Position numbers and translations under genes: made by a program
Part shown: positions 12,192 through 20,747 of the stretch, piece after piece
Layout of the letters: the number at the start of each line of letters is the position of its first letter
Position numbering within the stretch: the first letter of the stretch is position 1
Assembly: GCA_041640595.1 (NCBI GenBank)
Contig: JBEPZY010000001.1
Coordinates: forward strand, 896,001-960,000
Length of the DNA: 64,000 bases
Direction: 5' to 3'
Source: Gemmatales bacterium
Lineage (GTDB): Bacteria; Planctomycetota; Planctomycetia; Gemmatales; HRBIN36
Notes under the pieces: generated by a model
Told to the model about the DNA's origin: nothing
What the model saw: the letters and a program-made list of their open reading frames with translations, nothing else
Database searches by the model: none

Positions 12192-12422
12192 TTACGAACT
12201 CGGCGCAGCCGGGGCACGTTCGCTGGCCTGGAATCCGCTGGTACGATGGGAACCGTCGCAGAACGGCTTGTTTTGGGAATGTCCACAGCGACACAAGGCG
12301 ATGGCGGGTTTGCCAGAAGGAAGCGGGAATGGCTTTCCTTCCGCGTCGAGCACCTGCACCGGGCCTTCGACGACATAAGGTCCGTTATCGCGCACACGGA
12401 TAGTTACCACCGCATCAGCCAT
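12192..12422 (-). CDS. CDGSH iron-sulfur domain protein
   Basis: DNGPY..G and ALCRCGHSQNKPFCDGSH motifs. True start is MADAVV with a GGAG SD. Confidence 0.93.
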   Translation of the reverse strand: MADAVVTIRVRDNGPYVVEGPVQVLDAEGKPFPLPSGKPAIALCRCGHSQNKPFCDGSHRTSGFQASERAPAAPSS

Positions 12423-12732
12423 GACTCTACCTCCATTAGCTGAAGTGCATCTCCCTCGTATCAGCGTGATGCCAGAGCGCTGAATTCGTTTCGTTTCCCC
12501 CCACAATCGTTCGATTTTGCTCCAGATGATGCGCGTTCCGACTCCGATAATTTTTCCATTAGTCGCATCGTGTCCGAAACCTGTTACGCGAGTCGAAATT
12601 GATCTCCTTCGTTCCGCCAGCGTTCCGATGCTACACAATGGTCGGCAGCGGAACAATAGTTGGGGCGACCGGATAGTTGCACTCCGGTAGTCTTTTATTA
12701 TGCAGGGGGCAGGCGAACTCACAAAGGCAGGT

Positions 12733-13497
12733 TCAGAATTTTTGCGAGGCAAACTCTTCTTTTGGATCGTGTGGCACAAAGAGCCACGATATTTGCTGGG
12801 CCAGGTAAACGACGAACGCTCGTCGAAAGCGTTCCGGGGGCAAGTCGGGGTCAACGGATGCCGGCCCGCTGCCGCGAGGAAACTCCACGTGCAAATGTTC
12901 CTTGATCACCAAATCGCTCAGGACATCCTCAGCATCGGGCATGCGCGCCGGTGCTACTGTGACTGTTACGTCTGCCCGAGCCCGGTACAGCGTTCGATTG
13001 GAGCCATTCTCATAGAGCGAAGGATTGTTGAGCTCGACGAAAATGACCAAGTCGGCGCGCAATTGTCGGGCCATTTCGGAAGGTTCGAGGGCCTGCCACT
13101 GGTCGTTGCGATCTTGCCAGCGATGCACCACGCTGGGTGCCAGCACAACCAGGCGTTCCTTCTCCTGTTCGAACCCCTTAGCCAGAGCCTTGGACAGAGC
13201 ATCATCCAGTTCGCGGGCTAAAGGGCCCAGGTGAATTTGCGTCCCTACGTCCGTGTAAGTTACCACTGCGACGCGAAGAGGCTCCTTGCGTGGCTTGTTC
13301 AACTTTTCCCGATAACTGAGCAGATCAACTGGCGGCGGTGGACGCATGTCTTTGCCGAGCATGACTGCCGTGAAGTATATCAACGTCGGCAAGGTACAAC
13401 CGCTCATGACTGTCGAAAAAATGGCCACGCATACAATGCCAGATACACAAACGCGAACCCGACTTTTCCACCCGCCAGTGCCCATTCGCCCCATCAT
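12733..13497 (-). CDS. Planctomycete hypothetical lipoprotein
   Basis: Hydrophobic signal with MSGC lipobox. Alpha/beta body (ARQLRADLVIFVEL) resembles CsgG/TolB-N-type folds. Start is uncertain. Confidence 0.7.
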   Translation of the reverse strand: MMGRMGTGGWKSRVRVCVSGIVCVAIFSTVMSGCTLPTLIYFTAVMLGKDMRPPPPVDLLSYREKLNKPRKEPLRVAVVTYTDVGTQIHLGPLARELDDALSKALAKGFEQEKERLVVLAPSVVHRWQDRNDQWQALEPSEMARQLRADLVIFVELNNPSLYENGSNRTLYRARADVTVTVAPARMPDAEDVLSDLVIKEHLHVEFPRGSGPASVDPDLPPERFRRAFVVYLAQQISWLFVPHDPKEEFASQKF

Positions 13498-13619: not shown

Positions 13620-14387
13620 TTACCAGGATCCATTGCGGAGGTAAAGCAAGGCACGAATCAGCCAGCACCCCAAGACGAGCCAGAGCATAGTCCAGGCGGC
13701 CAGAGAACTGAGCCAGTGCCAGTCAGGAAGTCCTAGCGTTCGGCCGCTTATCCCCGCGACCGCGAACCAGACTGCCATGGTGACGGCTAGCAATACCATC
13801 ACCGGGCCGGCCGGGTTGACAGCCAGAGCAGCTCGCCAGTCTCCATGCATGAGCAGGCTGAAGCTCGTGGTCAACCCGCAGCTCGGACATGGCCAGCCGG
13901 TCAATCGCTGAAAGCTGCACGGTGGCAATCCTAACTGCTGATGCGTCCCCCAGCGGCGCGGCTGACCATTCTCGTCATAAGGATTCAGGCTGCGGGCTAT
14001 TCCCAGCACGGTACCAATCAGCAGAGCGATAAGTATCAGGCTGATACGTTGCCACCAGGCCAGTTTTTGCTCAGCCTCGACAGGAATCACTACCGGCATG
14101 ACTTCTGCCGAATCGGTGCTTGCTGTAGCTGGGAGCTCGGGTCGGCCTTCGTTTTGTGGTGTCGGTGCGCTGCCAGTAGCTTCCAGGCGTCCGGGGAGCG
14201 CTGCCATTTCGCTGCGAGCCTTATCTACTTCATCACCTGCCTGGTGTGATTCCGCTGCCGGCACACTATCCGTTGCCAGTGGCCGTGCCGGGGCAGCAGG
14301 GATAGCCGTTTCGGCGGCCCGATGGCAATCGGCAAGCTCATCGGGATGGTGCCCTGCCACAGTCTTCGTGTTTGGGTCGCGCACCAT
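13620..14387 (-). CDS. DUF2752 family membrane protein with disordered N-terminal extension
   Basis: HQQLGLPPCSF..LTGWPCPSCGLTTSF..L.HG motif flanked by TM helices. Start is uncertain. Confidence 0.8.
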   Translation of the reverse strand: MVRDPNTKTVAGHHPDELADCHRAAETAIPAAPARPLATDSVPAAESHQAGDEVDKARSEMAALPGRLEATGSAPTPQNEGRPELPATASTDSAEVMPVVIPVEAEQKLAWWQRISLILIALLIGTVLGIARSLNPYDENGQPRRWGTHQQLGLPPCSFQRLTGWPCPSCGLTTSFSLLMHGDWRAALAVNPAGPVMVLLAVTMAVWFAVAGISGRTLGLPDWHWLSSLAAWTMLWLVLGCWLIRALLYLRNGSW

Positions 14388-14538
14388 AACGTCCTCGCCA
14401 AGCCACGACAAGACCAGATCGTATGCAGGACGCGAGATTCTTCCAGAATGGCGCCACGTAGCCGTGGCCAGAAACTATGCCAAAACAATCAGCGGCATGC
14501 ACAGGCTGGACGTCGGAATTCAGCACCCTTGGAGCTGC

Positions 14539-17500
14539 CTATGGGCGGAACCGCCGGGTGAATTCCTCGTAAGCGTCGCGCAGCTCAGGAGGTAGAACCG
14601 GCCGGTCACTCGCATCCACGTCAGCGGATTGCCCTTCACGAGTAGCAGCGCGATTCGGACCTATTGCTCGCCGTCTCCCCTGAGACAGTTCCGCCTGCAC
14701 GACCTGGGGCTTATCGCGAAGCAGGCGCTGGAGTTCTTCGGGCGTTTTAACACCCAGGCGCTGCATTAGCTCACGGGTTGGCTTGTCAATTTCGCCTCGC
14801 TCCATTTTCTTCCGCAAACTGTCCAAAGTCAGGTCGCCCGGAGCTTCTGAGAATTCAGGGTTCGGCTTCATAGGTTTCGTGGCCAGCGGGCTGTCCTGCG
14901 CTGGGCCTTGCCGATCTACACCGGAAGTGTTCCCACCGCTGGTCGGCCCTGCCTGGCTCCCCGGCTTGTCTAGCGGCTGCTGAGAGCTGGCATTTCCGCT
15001 GTTACTACCACCTCCCTGGCCGGGCTCGGAACCCTGCCCTGAATCAGGCTTTCCGCCCGACTGCCCACCAGCATTCGCCTGCCCGGATTGACCGCTGCCG
15101 GCTTGTTGACCGCCGGCTTGCTGATTACCCCCACTTTGATTGCCATTTTGCGGCGATTCCCCTGGCTTTTGGCCTGCACTCGCCTCACCAGGCTGGCCCT
15201 GACCAGGTTTTTGTTGCCCACCTGCCTGCTGGTTACCGCCGCTCTGATTGCTCCCGGCCTGTCCAGGTTGACCGGACTGACCCTGACCGGGCTGCTGTTG
15301 GTTACCTGCCTGGCCACTCGAATTGGACTGGCTAGCACCGCTCGAACCACTAGGTTTTTGACCCGATCCCGACTGCCCAGCCTGGGCAGAGTTGCAACCG
15401 TCTCACCCACCTCCAGGTTTCTGCGGGCCACCTGCCTGCGGCGTGTTATTGCCCTGTGGGCGATTCGCCTGCTGTCCGGCGTTCGGCTGGCCCGGTTGGT
15501 TCCCCTGCGGCTTTTGCGGACCGCCTGCCTGGGCATCACCCTGCCCCTGCTCGCCGCCCATCGGCTTATTCGCCTGCTGTCCGGCGTTCGGCTGGCCGGG
15601 CTGATTCCCCTGCGGCTTTTGCGGACCGCCTGCCTGGGCATCACCCTGCCCCTGCTCGCCGCCCATCGGCTTATTCGCCTGCTGTCCCGCATTCGGCTGG
15701 CCGGGCTGGTTCCCCTGCGGCTTTTGCGGACCGCCGGCCTGGGCATCGCCTTGCCCCTGCTCGCCGCCCATCGGCTTATTCGCCTGCTGCCCCGCGTTCG
15801 GTTGGCCCGGTTGGTTCCCCTGCGGCTTTTGCGGACCGCTGGCCTGGGCGCCACCCTGCCCCTGCTCGCCGCCCATCGGCTTATTCGCCTGCTGTCCGGC
15901 GTTCGGTTGGCCGGGCTGGTTCCCCTGCGGCTTTTGCGGACCGCCTGCCTGAGCACCACCCTGCCCCTGTTCGCCGCCCATCGGCTTATTCGCCTGCTGT
16001 CCGGCGTTCGGCTGGCCGGGCTGATTCTGGGCAGGCTTTTGCTGTGCGTTTACATCGCTTCCACCGCCCTGGTTGGTCGTTTGCGGCTTATCTTCGGGCT
16101 TCCCGGCCGCTGAACCGCCAGCTTGATTTCCAGGCCCCGGCTTCTGGGGTTTATCAGAGGACTGCGAACCCGAGACCGTGCCAGGTTCGCTTTTATCAGG
16201 CGAACGGGAGTTTTGACCTGAACCGCGTTGCTCCGGATTACCGGAACCGCTTTTGTCGGGGGATGGCTTTTCCTCGCCGGAGCCGCTCGGCTTAGCCGCG
16301 TTGTCTTCCGGCTTGGAAGCTGGCTTATCTGCGGTCTCAGGCTTATTGTCCGGGCTGGGTTTCTGCTCATTCGCTCCGCGTTCTTGGGCACCTGGCTTGT
16401 CTGGTTTTCCGGGATTCGGTTTTTCCGGCTCAGACGGCGGGCGTTGCGGTTCGGTCAATTCCAGCAACACCTCCCGCGACTTCCCCGTATTCGGCTCCGG
16501 TCGTTTACAGTCCGTACCCTCTACCCACAGAAGCAGCTTCGTTCCCGCAGCCAATCGCACGGGCTCAGCCGGTCCAGGAGACTTCTGACTATCGCTGACG
16601 ACCACCGCCCGAGTCAGGTCAAGAGTAAGTTGGTACGCTGCTGGCACAATAGGCGTAAACCCATTGGGCTTCTGCAACGGGCCTATTTCCGCAGCCTCAT
16701 GAGCGATGCGAAGAAGCCGTTTTTGACCTTCTACCTCTTGCAACACCAACCAGACGAGGTCGGCCGCAAAATCATCGTTCGCCGTACCTATCACGGCCAC
16801 GGTAGCATCTACCGGGAGTTTGACCACCGGCCGGCCAGATTCGTTTGCGTTGGCCGGAGGCAGTTTTTCCTGGCCGACCTGATCCAGCGTAATCACTGGC
16901 CGCTGGTCCTCAATGACGCGGATGTTGAACCATTGCAACGTGCTGTACTGGTTCGACTTGTTCTTGAGCACCACACTGTAACGCTGCCACCCTTGTTTCA
17001 GAGTCAGCCGGTCGGGCAAAAATACCCGATTGGGCTGGTGATTGGGGTCGCTGTCGGGTTTTTGCACCAACTGGAAAACTTCCTGCCGGGGTGGCTGACC
17101 AGATTCCACCGTCAATTCGCCACTAACAATCGGCTGGTCGGCGAACACGGCTATTTCCACCTGGCTTCCGACCAGCGCCTCGATTTCGCCCACGGTTTGC
17201 GTCTTGGCCTCCCGCCGCGTGTACTCAGGGTAGTGAATTGTGATCTCAAACTGCCGCAGCTCCGGAGGATTGGTCAACCGCTCGACCAGGCGATACACTC
17301 GCGATTGCCCATCTCCGCCTGTTACGCGGAAAAACAATCCGCTGGCAGGAACACTACTGGCTCCCAGCTCCAGCTGCCATTCGGTGCGATACTGGTCAAT
17401 CGCCGTCATGGAGCGGCGAACGGGTTGTTCTCCGGGTTGCGTCCAGGTTTCGAGCCAGGCCTCGGGGGGCACCAGACCGTGTACTTTGACGCGAACCGTG

Positions 17501-18216
17501 ACCGGCTGACCACGCCGCACGGGAATTTCCAGAACTTCCTGTTTGTGCGGTTCAACATAAGGCCCGTCTTTCTCCGGCGCCAAGAGCTCAAACCGCGTAT
17601 CTGGCGGGATGGCCGTATCAGTAAACGGCACCAATGCTCTGGCCACCAGCGACAAAAATTGCTCCGGCACGAACAATGCGAACACGCCCATCACAATGAG
17701 CAGAGTCACCAGAACAAAGAACCAGCGCAAACATTGACCCGGCTGTGCAGCTGCCTCCGGATCGGTGTAACGGAAATCCTCCTGGGCTTCTCGCCGCAAC
17801 GCCTCCTTCACTAGATTCGGGATCGGCCGTTCGCGCAAGTCCAGATAAGCTGTTAGCGCATGGCGTGTAACTTGCGCCGATTTCTCCAGACGCCAGGCAG
17901 CATAGAGCAAGCTCACTTTCCGGCCCAGCGGCACAATGAGACGAAACCAGGCAAAAATCCCGCAGCCCACCAAAAACCCCGCGAACAACACCTTCCGTAG
18001 CCAGCCCGGCAACCCCTCTGGTCGCAACGCCTGGTCCGCCAGTGCCACCACCAACACGTAAACTGCGCAGGCCACCGCCAGAATGAAAACCGCGGTCGTG
18101 ATCTCCGTCCAGCGAATGCGCTCTGCGGTGCGTTGCAACTCGCGTAGCAACCGCTCATCTCGGGGTCGGCCAGCAGATGGTTGCTGCCTTTTCGTCAGCC
18201 CCGCGACTGTGCTCAT
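14539..18216 (-). CDS. Large membrane-anchored protein (N-terminal TMs, Ig-like modules, Gly/Gln/Pro linker, helical C-terminus) with one in-frame TGA at 15405-15403
   Basis: GAGGAG SD before the ATG at 18216. ORF-track ORFs 15403..18282 and 14539..14871 share a frame, and I found no other stop between them. The same G/Q/P/S composition continues past the TGA. C-terminus is PPELRDAYEEFTRR. Confidence 0.8.
15373..15389 (-). promoter_or_regulatory. Candidate bacterial SECIS hairpin
   Basis: mRNA CUGCCCA-GGC-UGGGCAG begins 13 nt 3' of the in-frame UGA and has G in the apical loop. Confidence 0.45.
15462..16023 (-). repeat. Coding tandem repeat: 105 nt / 35 aa unit, 5 full copies plus a partial
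   Basis: Near-identical copies of QPGQPNAGQQANKPMGGEQGQG(G/D)AQAGGPQKPQGN. The DNA motif recurs at 15464, 15569, 15674, 15779, 15884 and 15989. Confidence 0.97.
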
Positions 18217-18426
18217 GGCTAGTCTCCTCGGTGGCCTCGCCCGGGCCGGTCCTGCAACAAAATGGTTCTCCCGTTCACCCAACGAACCGCTCTATCGCAG
18301 ATGGAATTCCCCTCCCTCTACTGTTCAATTGTAGCAGAAACGGTCGCGGAAAGGTAGCCTTTTCCACACGCATATCCGACGACGTTCCACCAGTCATTGA
18401 GAAAGTCTTGGCTCGGAAGTTTTCGT

Positions 18427-20604
18427 TTATCGGAGCAATGCAGCGACCAGTCGCTCCAGATTGGCCGATTCCCGAACCAACTCAACACCACTGGCCAGCT
18501 TCAGCCGTTGTAACCGACTCTCCGCCGCCGGGTGGAATAAAACTGTACGGCCCTCGGTGCACAGGGGCACAAATCCGAATAGCCCCCCGTACTTCATCCC
18601 CCCAGGCAGCAACATTTCGTCCTGAACAGACTTCACCAGGTGAAAGTCGAAACCGGCTAAATCAATGGCGCTGCGGGCTACGGCACCATCGGCCAGGCAG
18701 CGAGCCAGTAACGCACACGGGCCCAGCTTGCTGTAAGCGACCAGCCACACTCCCTGTCCATCTTTCTTGAGCTGATGCGCTGCTGCCAGCAGAGTCAGCA
18801 CATCTTGAACACGGCAAGCGAACACGCTCGGATTATAGCCGAAATAATAACCGGCGTAGGTCGGGTTCACGGTCGGCAGTGGGGTAGGTTTGTCGGGCAA
18901 ATGGTACTCACCCGTCAAAAACACGTCCGCACTAATCACAAGCACCCCCGCGTTCAGCAGCTTCTGCACCTCCGGTACGGGCTTGCCTTGCTCATCGAGC
19001 AAACTGGCCTTGCCGTCAGGGTGAATCCAGACGCAAACAGTACCGTTCCAGTTTTTCGGTTCCAAACCCAGTGCGGGCAGCTGTACATCCGGCCGCGCAG
19101 TGCGTGCTATCAGGCCTTTGTGCAGCGTGAAATCCTTTTCTTCATGCTTTTGTAAAGTGCCCTCCACGATCTCAACAACCGATCGGCCCGGTTCATCAGC
19201 GGCGGGGATCGGCCAGCGGTCTTGAACCATGACACGCAGAGCCGTTCCGACTACCTCGCGATAGCGCTTGACATCCTTGCTCAACGCCTCCATCTGCTGG
19301 TCCGAAGTCTCGCTCAAATAGCGACGCAGCGCCGCCGCATCTTTGGCGTTCGATGGTCGTGGATGTTGTTCGTCGAACACGCTAAGCTGCTTAGGCGGGA
19401 TCGGTTGGAATGGCCTTTCGCTGATCGGTTCCGGGAAACCCAGCTGCAAATGGCGATTGAACCAGTGGTACATCATCTCCCGGCTGACCTGATTGTAATT
19501 GTGCGGAAACGGGAAATACTTAGCCAGGACGCGATCCTCAGCCCCGTAAAGCCCGTAGATGCGCCGCAGTTCGGGCAACCCCACCTGCTCAATGTCTTTC
19601 GTCCAATCGTTGGCACCAGTCATGGCCAGCGGTTTGGGGGCAAACAAAGCCGCGACTTCCACGTTGTTAGTACCGATACGCAGCAGCGAAGCGTTTTCGC
19701 ATTCGCAACCGCCCTGCATGTTCATGGATACCATCACTGCCGGGAATGCGACCTGCACCCGGTCATCCACTGCCGACAGAATGAATGTCTGCGTTCCGCC
19801 GCCGCTGGCTCCGGTTACTCCGATGCGTTGGGTGTCCACTTCCGGTGCCAGACTGAACAGAAAATCCAGAGCGCGAATACTGTTCCAGGTTTGCAAACCC
19901 ATTAAACTTTGCAAGCGCAATTGTGTCTCCACCTCCGCCCCTTGCGCAAAGCCGCCCCGATGAGCGATACCCTGAGAATCAGCGTAACCGACCATGTCAT
20001 AATGAAAAACCACACACCCCATCCGTGCCAGCATGGCACAGCGTGCCTGCAACGGATACCGTGCCCCGTTTTCCGTTTTTTCTGCACCACTGGCCAGTTG
20101 CTGTTTAACTTCCGCGTCGCTGGCCTCGTAAAACCGACCATTTCTCCAGTGTCCGTGAGGACAAAGCACGCCGGCAAATCGCTGTCGCACGTTGGGCTTC
20201 GGTTTGGGCCGATACAGGTTCCCGGTTACATAATGCCCTGGCAAACTCTCAAAATATACCTTCCAGACCGTGTATTCGTCGCGGTCAATGGGGCTATGGA
20301 CGACGGCGTTTAACGGCGTTCGTTCCGGCATGGGCCACAATCCCAGCGCCACCAGAATCTGCTCGCGCAATTCCCGAGCACGGATTTCCCAGGCTTCTCG
20401 CGTCTGGGGTACCTGGATGCGAGTCGTGGTGTTATAATCCCGCGGTTTGCCCAGACGGCTATCTTTCGGCAACGTTTTTCCGTCCAGCACTCGCGTGAGC
20501 GCTTTGCCATTCGGGACCTGCACCTGCTGGGTCTGGCCCGAATCAAGAGCCAACGCCAGGACGGCCGAACACGCAACCGCTGTCAGCAAAGCCTGCCGCG
20601 CCAT
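18427..20604 (-). CDS. Secreted alpha/beta-hydrolase (acetyl xylan esterase-like, duplicated fold)
   Basis: Signal peptide, VLCPHGHW, YDMVGYADS and nucleophile elbow GASGGG. GAGGAG SD before the ATG at 20604. Confidence 0.85.
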   Translation of the reverse strand: MARQALLTAVACSAVLALALDSGQTQQVQVPNGKALTRVLDGKTLPKDSRLGKPRDYNTTTRIQVPQTREAWEIRARELREQILVALGLWPMPERTPLNAVVHSPIDRDEYTVWKVYFESLPGHYVTGNLYRPKPKPNVRQRFAGVLCPHGHWRNGRFYEASDAEVKQQLASGAEKTENGARYPLQARCAMLARMGCVVFHYDMVGYADSQGIAHRGGFAQGAEVETQLRLQSLMGLQTWNSIRALDFLFSLAPEVDTQRIGVTGASGGGTQTFILSAVDDRVQVAFPAVMVSMNMQGGCECENASLLRIGTNNVEVAALFAPKPLAMTGANDWTKDIEQVGLPELRRIYGLYGAEDRVLAKYFPFPHNYNQVSREMMYHWFNRHLQLGFPEPISERPFQPIPPKQLSVFDEQHPRPSNAKDAAALRRYLSETSDQQMEALSKDVKRYREVVGTALRVMVQDRWPIPAADEPGRSVVEIVEGTLQKHEEKDFTLHKGLIARTARPDVQLPALGLEPKNWNGTVCVWIHPDGKASLLDEQGKPVPEVQKLLNAGVLVISADVFLTGEYHLPDKPTPLPTVNPTYAGYYFGYNPSVFACRVQDVLTLLAAAHQLKKDGQGVWLVAYSKLGPCALLARCLADGAVARSAIDLAGFDFHLVKSVQDEMLLPGGMKYGGLFGFVPLCTEGRTVLFHPAAESRLQRLKLASGVELVRESANLERLVAALLR

Positions 20605-20747
20605 AATCGTTCTCCTCTGCATTGGCGACATGTTTGCTTTAGCCACTGCTACCACGCTTCGTCAAGGGACTAAGAGACGTTCGCTCTGCGGTTGCTAACA
20701 TAAACAACCGAGCGCACTGCCGTTTTCTCGGACTAAGGAGGCTTCTC

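Follow-up and report, generated by a model that had tools for sequence, protein, structure and literature searches.

Bacterial selenoproteins with a UxxC motif, in which selenocysteine (Sec, U) is paired with a cysteine, derive from CxxC proteins of thioredoxin-like, DsbA-like, redoxin and similar types, as listed in Table 1 of PMC13188914 and in PMC1088965. Known bacterial selenoproteins are mostly redox enzymes or metal-binding proteins, and nearly all of those listed in the same two sources have a defined domain or family model. The locus described here resembles these systems in three respects: an in-frame UGA is followed by a candidate bacterial SECIS (bSECIS) hairpin, the putative UxxC has Cys homologues, and the distribution of Sec and Cys is patchy, apparently starting from Cys in a Sec-decoding organism. 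Unlike them, it places the motif in a low-complexity Gly/Gln/Pro tether of an about 1200-residue protein, apparently outside any folded domain.

Three further systems offer partial parallels. Eukaryotic selenoproteins K and S are membrane-anchored and carry Sec in a Gly/Pro-rich, intrinsically disordered segment. The protein described here would share the membrane anchor and the siting of Sec in disordered sequence outside any folded active site. Selenoproteins K and S, however, are small proteins of the eukaryotic ER, their Sec is close to the C-terminus and their SECIS occupies the 3' UTR; we know of no sequence relationship between them and our protein. The zinc hook of Rad50 is a lone CxxC mid-way in a long arm, which could link two molecules through a metal ion bound by both copies. 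A lone pair in mid-arm is found here too, which may serve as an analogy for a possible mechanism; the Rad50 arm is a cytoplasmic coiled coil, the present tether is disordered. TIGR02302-type proteins are low-complexity membrane proteins, and the likeness to them and to DUF4175 (PF13779) lies in membrane helices at the N-terminus and, after them, a long part outside the cytoplasm with Gln/Gly-rich low-complexity sequence. A distant orthologue, G035, matched PF13779 with 23.2 bits (E = 2e-5), under the gathering cut-off of 27.3 bits, as the only one of nine orthologues scanned, and 10-12% of the members of the nearest ESM Atlas clusters carry PF13779; our protein itself did not match that model at E up to 0.1. 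A literature search retrieved no report of DUF4175 as a selenoprotein; the domain was mentioned in four papers, of which none dealt with selenium. DUF4175 is a domain of no known function.

The window, that is, the whole 64,000-nucleotide stretch of Gemmatales DNA analysed, contains the gene (G000 below) on its minus strand, with the following elements:

14539..18216, minus strand: whole gene, 1225 codons by translation, with a single in-frame TGA and a terminal TAG at 14539-14541
15403..15405, minus strand: in-frame TGA, codon 938, candidate Sec codon and position 1 of UxxC
15394..15396, minus strand: TGC codon of Cys941, the partner Cys of UxxC
18224..18229, minus strand: Shine-Dalgarno-like hexamer GAGGAG, 8-13 nt 5' of the ATG at 18214-18216

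Translation of 14539-18216 on this strand contained two stops only, the TGA at 15405-15403 (codon 938 from the ATG at 18216), where the initial annotation had placed it, and the terminal TAG, and the GAGGAG hexamer bears out its view of that ATG as supported by a Shine-Dalgarno site. The frame remains open for 287 codons past the TGA and reaches ORF 14539..14871, again as claimed; the ORF list gives 15403..18282 and 14539..14871 as two ORFs of one frame. The peptide around the stop reads KPGGG-[TGA]-DGC-N. Cys residues of the gene product are located at positions 50, 85, 162, 570 and 941, confirming that C941 is the sole Cys after residue 570.

Hydropathy analysis and structural modelling divided the product into four regions, the third of which includes a tandem repeat:

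17632..18168, minus strand: N-terminal helical region, residues 17-195 (hydropathy and AlphaFold)
16453..17598, minus strand: three tandem beta-sandwich (Ig-like) domains, residues 207-588 (AlphaFold, mean pLDDT 85.9)
14872..16431, minus strand: low-complexity linker, residues 596-1115 (composition; no Pfam family)
15463..16027, minus strand: tandem repeat in the linker, 5.4 copies of a 105-nt (35-aa) unit (Tandem Repeats Finder)
14542..14961, minus strand: conserved C-terminal region, last 140 residues (alignment, family hallmarks and structure model)

Three hydrophobic segments at about residues 38-62, 75-97 and 162-190 were seen in the hydropathy profile, and AlphaFold predicted helices at 17-63, 71-98 and 159-182 with pLDDT of 80-93. 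The positive-inside rule would put the N-terminus and the 98-161 loop in the cytoplasm and everything beyond residue 190 outside it. The best Foldseek matches of the N-domain were tandem Ig and adhesin domains (titin, an ice-binding adhesin and PrgB), which are generic. The linker consists of 23% G, 19% Q, 13% P, 10% A, 9% S and 8% N; its tandem repeat, present in 2 to 5 copies depending on strain among related database proteins, stops 58 nt before the TGA. With residues 596-1115 free of any Pfam domain and of G/Q/P/A/S/N-rich low complexity, the motif does not appear to sit at the N-terminus of a helix in a thioredoxin-like fold, as the UxxC of thioredoxin-fold oxidoreductases does. Most likely, selenium is carried in a flexible tether and not in the folded site of an enzyme, an unusual arrangement among bacteria. 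The C-terminal region is marked by the hallmarks DLxLDSLRKKLERGEID and PPELRDAYExFTRR and was modelled as a small helical bundle with helices at 46-94 and 125-136, at a mean pLDDT of only 64.6, judged too uncertain for a fold search. A similar C-terminal end was detected in 103 of 150 family representatives using a crude regular expression, which was adopted when an HMM built from alignment A3 proved too narrow (28 of 150 matches). Searched against cluster representatives, the wider family gave 1835 matches at E up to 0.001. Neither half of the protein had a usable Pfam match at E up to 0.1, and both halves gave zero matches in NCBIfam at the same threshold, including its known selenoprotein families. 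Together with zero mentions of the family's names and features in a 2026 review of prokaryotic selenoproteins (PMC13188914), this agrees with the earlier impression of an architecture new among known selenoprotein families. A tblastn comparison of five window neighbours with flanking sequence from relatives (14 flanks of about 1.5 kb) gave no match at 1e-5, and hence the gene has no operon context in these flanks.

The GC-rich, low-complexity DNA around the gene is open in several frames (14970..15959, 15088..16113 and others), so that openness of the frame past the TGA says little by itself. What goes beyond chance is that this frame encodes the conserved C-terminal domain of the family, intact and 72% identical to that of G002, an orthologue from the same genus whose gene carries it, fused, within one continuous ORF; in the orthologues, both halves are covered by single ORFs of 1078-1379 aa. 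The C-terminal region is reached only upon decoding of the TGA. One alternative is that the TGA is a true stop, giving a 937-residue protein, with the 287 downstream codons either decaying or translated from the ATG at 14871 after gene fission. Gene callers do divide the locus there in every assembly seen (as in P0036 of 110 aa and P0041 of 147 aa), and termination at a UGA is always in competition with Sec insertion. However, 10 of the 18 strain differences past the TGA are synonymous, where about 1 in 3 would be expected (p = 0.045), and 11 of the same 18 fall on codon position 3 (p = 0.014), a bias towards synonymous sites that argues against decay. The internal ATG at 14871 has no GGAGG-like site in front of it. 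We regard a true stop as quite unlikely, also in view of the comparisons with relatives given below.

The TGA recurs outside the window. In G003, a second species of the same genus with 66% identity in the N-domain, GGPG-TGA-PDC occurs at the same spot, again giving a UxxC, and the frame stays open up to the end of the contig; a conserved in-frame TGA is thus shared by no fewer than two different sequences, the DNA of G000 and that of G003. Among the 27 database proteins of the G000-like clusters, 17 terminate exactly at ...QKPGGG, one of them probably being the window's own, and six of nine proteins of the P0010 cluster end at ...GGPG, as does P0007, which adds two more lineages with an end at this residue. 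The P0001/P0002, P0007 and P0010 clusters, in all of which such ends occur, are known as proteins only, and their stop codon is assumed to be the same. In the N-domain tree, the genus has four basal lineages, and stop/U forms were found in three of them; one of these three divides into P0006/P0007 and G000 groups with stop forms in both. A TGA that persists across lineages differing by about 35% in the conserved N-domain, with the downstream domain intact, speaks against a true stop. That reading can point to several strains in which loss of the motif is tolerated: three proteins of close strains have Gly at the site (GGG-G-DG-G), one reads GG-G-PDC, and the segment is missing altogether in P0003, P0005 and P0006. 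Because close strains carry Gly or lack the segment, the U residue is dispensable.

We also considered an error of sequencing or assembly, or a nonsense mutation confined to this strain, as the TGA is 58 nt away from a 105-nt tandem repeat at which many assemblies break; an earlier search for the motif region in the same-genus genomes G001 and G003 had recovered nothing, with contigs breaking in the repeats. The TGA was retained without indels in contigs of runs X3 and X4, which come from other studies, and since such independent assemblies carry it, it is not an error. A contig of X2 is identical to the window and may be the source of this DNA. In addition, 17 distinct proteins from the database, whose repeat copy number ranges from 2 to 5, stop at the same residue, and G003 has a TGA at the homologous site, which answers the concern of the initial annotation that the codon might be private to one strain. 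This explanation is already contradicted, and we assign it a vanishingly small probability. A metagenome scan yielded four loci only: L055, which has exactly the window's sequence at the motif and may come from the same organism, one that starts past the motif, and two that are G008-like and G004-like.

The genome encodes the Sec machinery, for which the initial annotation had proposed a search: selA (475 bits), selB (387 bits, above the cut-off), selD (390 bits) and tRNA-Sec were all present, and selA was also found in G001-G004. Five other genes have in-frame TGA at classic positions, namely selD (one TGA), three of 12 AhpC/TSA matches and a Rdx/SelW-like gene. Use of UGA as a genome-wide sense codon was rejected, TGA being the commonest stop among the long ORFs of the genome (631 of 1463).

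The following hairpin was predicted 3' of the UGA:

15373..15389, minus strand: candidate bacterial SECIS apical hairpin CUGCCC-AGGCU-GGGCAG, -10.4 kcal/mol

Its stem of 6-7 bp begins 13 nt past the UGA, with the loop AGGCU/GGC at +19/+20. In G003 the hairpin CCACCG-GGUC-CGGUGG has a 6 bp stem, the loop GGUC at +22 and -9.2 kcal/mol. The two hairpins differ in sequence and occupy non-homologous peptide positions, and they lie at about equal distance from the UGA. The bSECIS model, as drawn in Fig. 2 of PMC13188914, has a loop of 3-9 nt with G in its first two positions, an upper stem of 4-16 bp, a distance of 16-37 nt between UGA and loop, and an MFE of -7.5 kcal/mol or lower; the hairpins of G000 and G003 agree with all four criteria of the model in that form. 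Under a stricter set of criteria, fixed after the G000 hairpin had been seen, a hairpin was found after 0.5% of genome positions drawn at random and after 0.39% of TGA triplets overall, and a looser test after the published criteria was passed by 4.2% of random TGA triplets. As the strict criteria were set in this order, the G003 hairpin is the only independent test, and only one of five known selenoprotein genes of this genome passed them. Such hairpins number one in the G000 gene, the one after the TGA, and two in that of G003; none follows the Cys motif of G002 or G004. The loop AGGCU also occurs in the genome's own Prx2 SECIS, UCGCC-AGGCU-GGCGA. The 81 nt around the TGA as a whole fold no better than shuffled sequence (z = -0.19), so only the local hairpin is informative, and an Rfam scan of 14000-19000 at E up to 10 returned two chance-level matches and no SECIS family.

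The presence of the hairpin in both species stands against a true stop, and it would also be in keeping with Sec-independent programmed read-through, in which a near-cognate tRNA together with the hairpin 3' of the UGA would produce a long and a short isoform; the Gly and Cys variants show tolerance of several residues at the site. Read-through of this kind is nevertheless very unlikely in our view, given a full Sec machinery that serves at least five other genes, a site that is the Cys position of a CxxC, and a hairpin that fits a SelB-type model in loop and spacing and resembles the Prx2 element.

Cys counterparts of the UGA were found in relatives. G004, from another genus, has GSGE-CAEC-K at the aligned position, and G002 has GGGD-CQC-N; in each, the pair contains the only linker Cys. 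The initial annotation had proposed to check whether relatives carry an aligned TGA or Cys with a conserved xxC. This holds for the TGA of G003 and the CxxC of G004; in G002 the pair is CxC, so that its first Cys is one residue off U. The second Cys of the motif is retained in G003, P0043, G002 and G004. A contig of the RNA-library run X5 has TGC (Cys) in place of the TGA, at a depth of 26.6 of 129; the X5 contigs were rejected as a sign of transcription or translation, neither of which they show. Across the 150 family representatives, Cys is rare past position 620 (54 of 87,868 residues), and 30 of these 54 Cys form 15 C-x(1-4)-C pairs, which are spread over 14 proteins, with K directly after the pair in 10 of the 15. 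An older pipeline asked for at least two Cys homologues and for TGA/Cys pairs in more than 50% of homologues (PMC1088965); since 136 of the 150 representatives are without a Cys pair in the linker, the family lies below this last proportion. On these alignments, U/C-x-x-C is a facultative yet recurrent feature of the family's tether. That the TGA coincides with the first Cys of a recurrent CxxC, and that a TGC variant is known, both speak against a true stop.

Combined with the Sec machinery, the aligned TGA and Cys codons, the independent assemblies and the hairpin in both TGA species seen as DNA, these comparative data suggest that UGA938 is most likely a selenocysteine codon, in support of the Sec insertion first proposed for it. 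By the canonical mechanism, SelB and Sec-tRNA(Sec) would be recruited by the GC-rich hairpin 13 nt past the UGA, with its loop AGGCU at +19, and the ribosome would insert Sec and then translate 287 further codons. The predicted product of 1225 residues would cross the membrane with three helices and continue outside the cytoplasm with three Ig-like domains. A disordered Gly/Gln/Pro tether of roughly 520 residues, with Sec as the first position of its U/C-x-x-C, would come next, and a small conserved helical C-terminal domain would complete the chain. Sec probably arose from Cys at or before the base of the hot-spring genus, with later losses in single strains by reversion to Cys, replacement with Gly or deletion. 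Either within a single chain or between a pair of tethers, the U/C pair would most likely form a reversible selenylsulfide or bind a soft metal, and failed Sec insertion would leave a 937-residue form without the C-terminal domain. The redox or metal switch and the two isoforms envisaged in the initial annotation are likewise conceivable. A combined scheme, in which selenium supply would set the 1225- versus the 937-residue form and the selenol and thiol of two tethers would cross-link through a soft metal or a selenylsulfide in a zinc-hook-like manner, dependent on redox state or metal, is speculative and, as a whole, rather unlikely; should it hold, no earlier bacterial selenoprotein would be known to have its Sec at work outside a folded domain.

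As the locus is divided into two ORFs in every assembly seen, it needs re-annotation. Sec in the low-complexity tether of a large, membrane-anchored Ig-domain protein would enlarge the prokaryotic selenoproteome by one family, and the uncharacterised DUF4175-like proteins would gain a first functional handle in the conserved CxxC/UxxC of their tether. The nearly identical hot-spring strains, with U, C, G and deletion at the same site, would provide a natural set of variants for assessing the benefit of Sec versus Cys.

The candidate gene (window 14539-18216, minus strand) spans 1226 codons and its translation contains two stops, a TGA at codon 938 (15403-15405) and a terminal TAG. The peptide around the TGA is KPGGG-[TGA]-DGC-N, and the only cysteines of the protein are residues 50, 85, 162, 570 and 941. 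A mechanical ORF list cuts this frame into 15403..18282 and 14539..14871; the initial annotation had described a frame that stays open behind the TGA, with this local motif and Cys-941 as the lone downstream cysteine, and was right in every detail checked. The linker, or tether (residues 596-1115; G 23%, Q 19%, P 13%), holds a tandem repeat of 5.4 copies of a 105-nt unit, which ends 58 nt 5' of the TGA. The copy number of this 35-residue repeat (window 15463-16027) varies among near-identical strains, as database proteins of 832, 867, 902 and 937 AA residues correspond to 2 to 5 copies, and the repeat is a frequent cause of assembly breaks and frameshifts. Several long other-frame ORFs overlap the linker on both strands of window 14970-16295, such as 14970..15959 (minus) and 15088..16113 (plus), and look like by-products of GC-rich low-complexity sequence rather than genes.

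Searches of Pfam and NCBIfam gave no match for either half of the protein; a distant orthologue in the related genome G035 matches DUF4175 below cut-off, and DUF4175 occurs in 10-12% of the members of the nearest Atlas clusters. Structural modelling in AlphaFold with a 14-sequence alignment (mean pLDDT 85.9) suggested that the protein begins with a helical region, in which three helices are hydrophobic, and continues with three beta-sandwich domains at residues 207-588. A Foldseek search with the N-domain model returned generic tandem Ig and adhesin domains only, and the C-terminal 140 residues were modelled, at low confidence, as a small helical bundle. The N-terminus and the 98-161 loop are rich in Arg/Lys, which suggests a cytoplasmic location for both; the positive-inside rule would then put the rest of the chain beyond residue 190, with the proposed UxxC motif, outside the cytoplasm. 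No conserved neighbour genes were found in the relatives, and the candidate gene is accompanied in the window by the following genes.

12192-12854, minus strand: CDGSH iron-sulfur domain protein, two genes downstream of the candidate gene
13620-14411, minus strand: DUF2752 membrane protein (E = 3e-17) with Cys-rich motifs PPC...CPSCG, immediately downstream; this adjacency is not kept in relatives
18427-20655, minus strand: 742-residue protein with weak esterase-like matches (GCE_fung, AXE1), upstream

Of 41 related genomes, 40 contain a match to the N-terminal 600 residues and 12 a match to the last 140 residues used as query. Both ends lie in a single unbroken frame of 1078-1329 AA residues in the related genomes G002, G004, G009, G008, G039, G010 and G006. 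The part behind the TGA shares 72% identity with G002 and contains, on alignment, the family blocks DLxLDSLRKKLERGEID and PPELRDAYExFTRR; when 150 cluster representatives from the wider family were screened with a crude regular expression, 103 showed a similar C-terminal end. Given the single-frame relatives and the conserved C-terminal domain, a complete protein of this family therefore requires decoding of the TGA. Strains differ at 18 sites from the TGA to 14850; 10 of these changes are synonymous (expected fraction about 0.33, p = 0.045) and 11 fall on codon position 3 (p = 0.014), a pattern lending modest support to translation of the downstream frame.

The TGA is not private to the window strain, a possibility that the initial annotation had raised. 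In G003, a different species of the same genus (N-domain identity 66%), the homologous site reads KPAPGGPG-TGA-PDC-EKSTGSGG, with xxC kept and the frame open up to the contig end. A protein search gave 11 relatives, the members of whose clusters were then examined; these are known as protein sequence alone, and TGA is taken as their presumed stop codon. In the three clusters resembling the window protein, 17 of 27 members, drawn from JGI, ENA and NCBI and carrying 2 to 5 repeat copies, terminate exactly at QKPGGG (P0024 among them probably represents the window gene itself). Another 3 have GGG-G-DG-G and continue through the site, while the remaining 7 are incomplete or lose the frame inside the repeats. 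Six of the nine members of the P0010 cluster terminate at SPGGPG, two are short downstream ORFs, and one, P0043, reads through as GGLG-G-PDC-DKPTGSGG; P0007, from another lineage, terminates at PQPGGPG. The N-domain tree places the genus in a single clade (support 100/100) of four lineages with unresolved branching order, and stop/U forms occur in three of the four; where one lineage divides into the P0006/P0007 group and that of the window, both branches have them. Assembled contigs of four sequencing runs were compared over 14850-15465, where the X2 contig is identical to the window but may be the source of its DNA, and X3 and X4 each have one contig over the site, which departs from the window at 3 other positions but agrees with it at 15403-15405. 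These X3 and X4 contigs, the TGA of G003 and the absence of indels among the contigs of the four runs rule out an error at the TGA. Shared across species, lineages and assemblies, the TGA is therefore old, with an intact C-terminal domain behind it. P0179, a family representative of 1194 AA residues known from its protein sequence only, terminates at DKGGGC, right after a Cys in a Gly run; a recoded stop might have truncated this protein too, or the contig may simply end there.

Cysteine forms of the site, which the initial annotation had proposed to seek as TGC or TGT, do exist. The protein of G004, from another genus of the family, reads GSGE-CAEC-KDQ and that of G002 GGGD-CQC-NQG, in each case the only cysteines of the linker. 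X5 is an RNA library analysed in contig form, and one of its contigs (depth 26.6 of 129) carries T>G at plus-strand 15403, changing TGA to TGC (Cys) on the coding strand. When 1.84 billion cluster representatives were searched, 1835 matched as family members with E up to 0.001. The best 150 of these have just 54 cysteines among the 87,868 residues beyond position 620 (0.06%), and 30 of the 54 are arranged as 15 C-x(1-4)-C pairs, spread over 14 proteins (P0056, P0066, P0073, P0081, P0085, P0088, P0089, P0091, P0096, P0101, P0110, P0115, P0138 and P0169). The pairs, for example P-CAEC-KGGG, CPEC-KGGG and CQC-KGGD, lie 177-495 residues before the C-terminus, and 10 of the 15 have a K behind them. 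Such a lone pair in the almost Cys-free tether of DUF4175-like proteins, usually followed by Lys and Gly, appears to be a short linear motif not previously described. Given the Cys pairs in relatives, the U of the window gene and G003 would thus stand for the first Cys of a recurrent, facultative tether motif.

The selenocysteine (Sec) machinery, on which the initial annotation had made its proposal depend, is present in full in the window's own genome (4.45 Mb, 42 contigs): selA (475 bits), selB (387 bits, above cut-off), selD (390 bits), itself with one in-frame TGA, and one tRNA-Sec with anticodon tca. In-frame TGAs were also found in 3 of 12 AhpC/TSA matches and in a Rdx/SelW-like gene adjoining selD, and for a planctomycete the organism is fairly selenoprotein-rich. 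Elsewhere in this genome TGA is an ordinary stop, ending 631 of 1463 ORFs of at least 400 codons. The sites on its contigs C1-C3 are as follows.

C1:725715-727058, outside the window: selD (CAG-U-AGK) and the adjoining Rdx/SelW-like gene with its own in-frame TGA
C1:211240-211635: AhpC/TSA-family gene with in-frame TGA
C2:6075-6467: AhpC/TSA-family gene with in-frame TGA
C3:187828-188133: AhpC/TSA-family gene with in-frame TGA

The bacterial SECIS model has a loop of 3-9 nt on an upper stem of 4-16 bp (PMC13188914, Fig. 2 legend), with a G within the loop's first two positions, mostly in the form N1-G-[G/U]-N-N2, a UGA-to-loop distance of 16-37 nt and an MFE of -7.5 kcal/mol or lower (PMC13188914). 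The window gene carries the hairpin CUGCCC-AGGCU-GGGCAG (-10.4 kcal/mol), whose stem begins 13 nt past the UGA and whose loop begins at +19/+20, and G003 carries CCACCG-GGUC-CGGUGG (-9.2 kcal/mol), with the loop at +22; the two have no common sequence and encode different peptide positions (SAQAGQ vs STGSGG), but lie at nearly equal distance from the UGA. A strict test, set after the window hairpin had been seen, demanded a perfect Watson-Crick stem of at least 6 bp with at least 4 GC, and a loop of 3-6 nt having G among its first two nucleotides, starting at +15 to +25. It was passed at 1012 of 200,000 random genome positions and by 430 of 109,539 TGA triplets, at 4 adjacent codon positions of 1204 in the window gene, all from the post-TGA hairpin, and at 8 of 991 in the G003 gene, representing two hairpins, one of them after the TGA. 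Two hairpins each pass in the Cys forms of G002 and G004, none near the Cys motif. In a looser test after the published criteria, 251 of 6000 random TGA triplets passed, 129 of them at -9.2 kcal/mol or lower. In this genome each of the five known selenoprotein genes has a hairpin of at least 5 bp whose loop, placed at +17 to +38, contains G; the strict test is passed by one of the five, Prx2 (UCGCC-AGGCU-GGCGA), whose loop is identical to that of the candidate hairpin. Two results count against a SECIS: taken in full, the 81-nt region around the TGA folds no more stably than its shuffled versions, and an Rfam search reported nothing.

A 2026 review of prokaryotic selenoproteomes gives more than 110 families, and its text makes no mention of DUF4175, planctomycetes, or a disordered, linker, periplasmic or membrane-protein context (PMC13188914). 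The nine new families of the deep-Sep paper are proteins other than the candidate (PMC12013277, section 7), and the excerpted Porphyra planctomycete paper lists other selenoproteins (PMC4807772). In full-text searches DUF4175 turned up in 4 papers, none of them about selenium, and the planctomycete selenoprotein literature yielded no description of the candidate protein. By the Sargasso Sea criteria (PMC1088965, section 18) the locus would count as a new selenoprotein, since the TGA is conserved in two or more sequences, there are homologues with Cys, and a SECIS-like structure is present, although it would fail the filter of >50% TGA/Cys pairs in that work because the motif is facultative.

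On this comparative evidence, it is quite likely that UGA 938 encodes Sec, and the candidate is a credible predicted new selenoprotein family. Sec would be inserted at codon 938 in a SelB-dependent manner, and would have replaced an ancestral Cys no later than the base of the genus, with later losses to Cys (the X5 variant), to Gly (the P0004 type and P0043) or by deletion (P0003, P0005 and P0006). It is speculative that the U/C pair acts as a selenylsulfide switch or binds soft metals, possibly between two tethers, and also speculative that selenium supply sets the choice between a 1225-residue and a 937-residue form. Sec decoding of this gene looks canonical; the unusual point is the position of the predicted Sec, in the disordered tether of a membrane-anchored Ig-domain protein.
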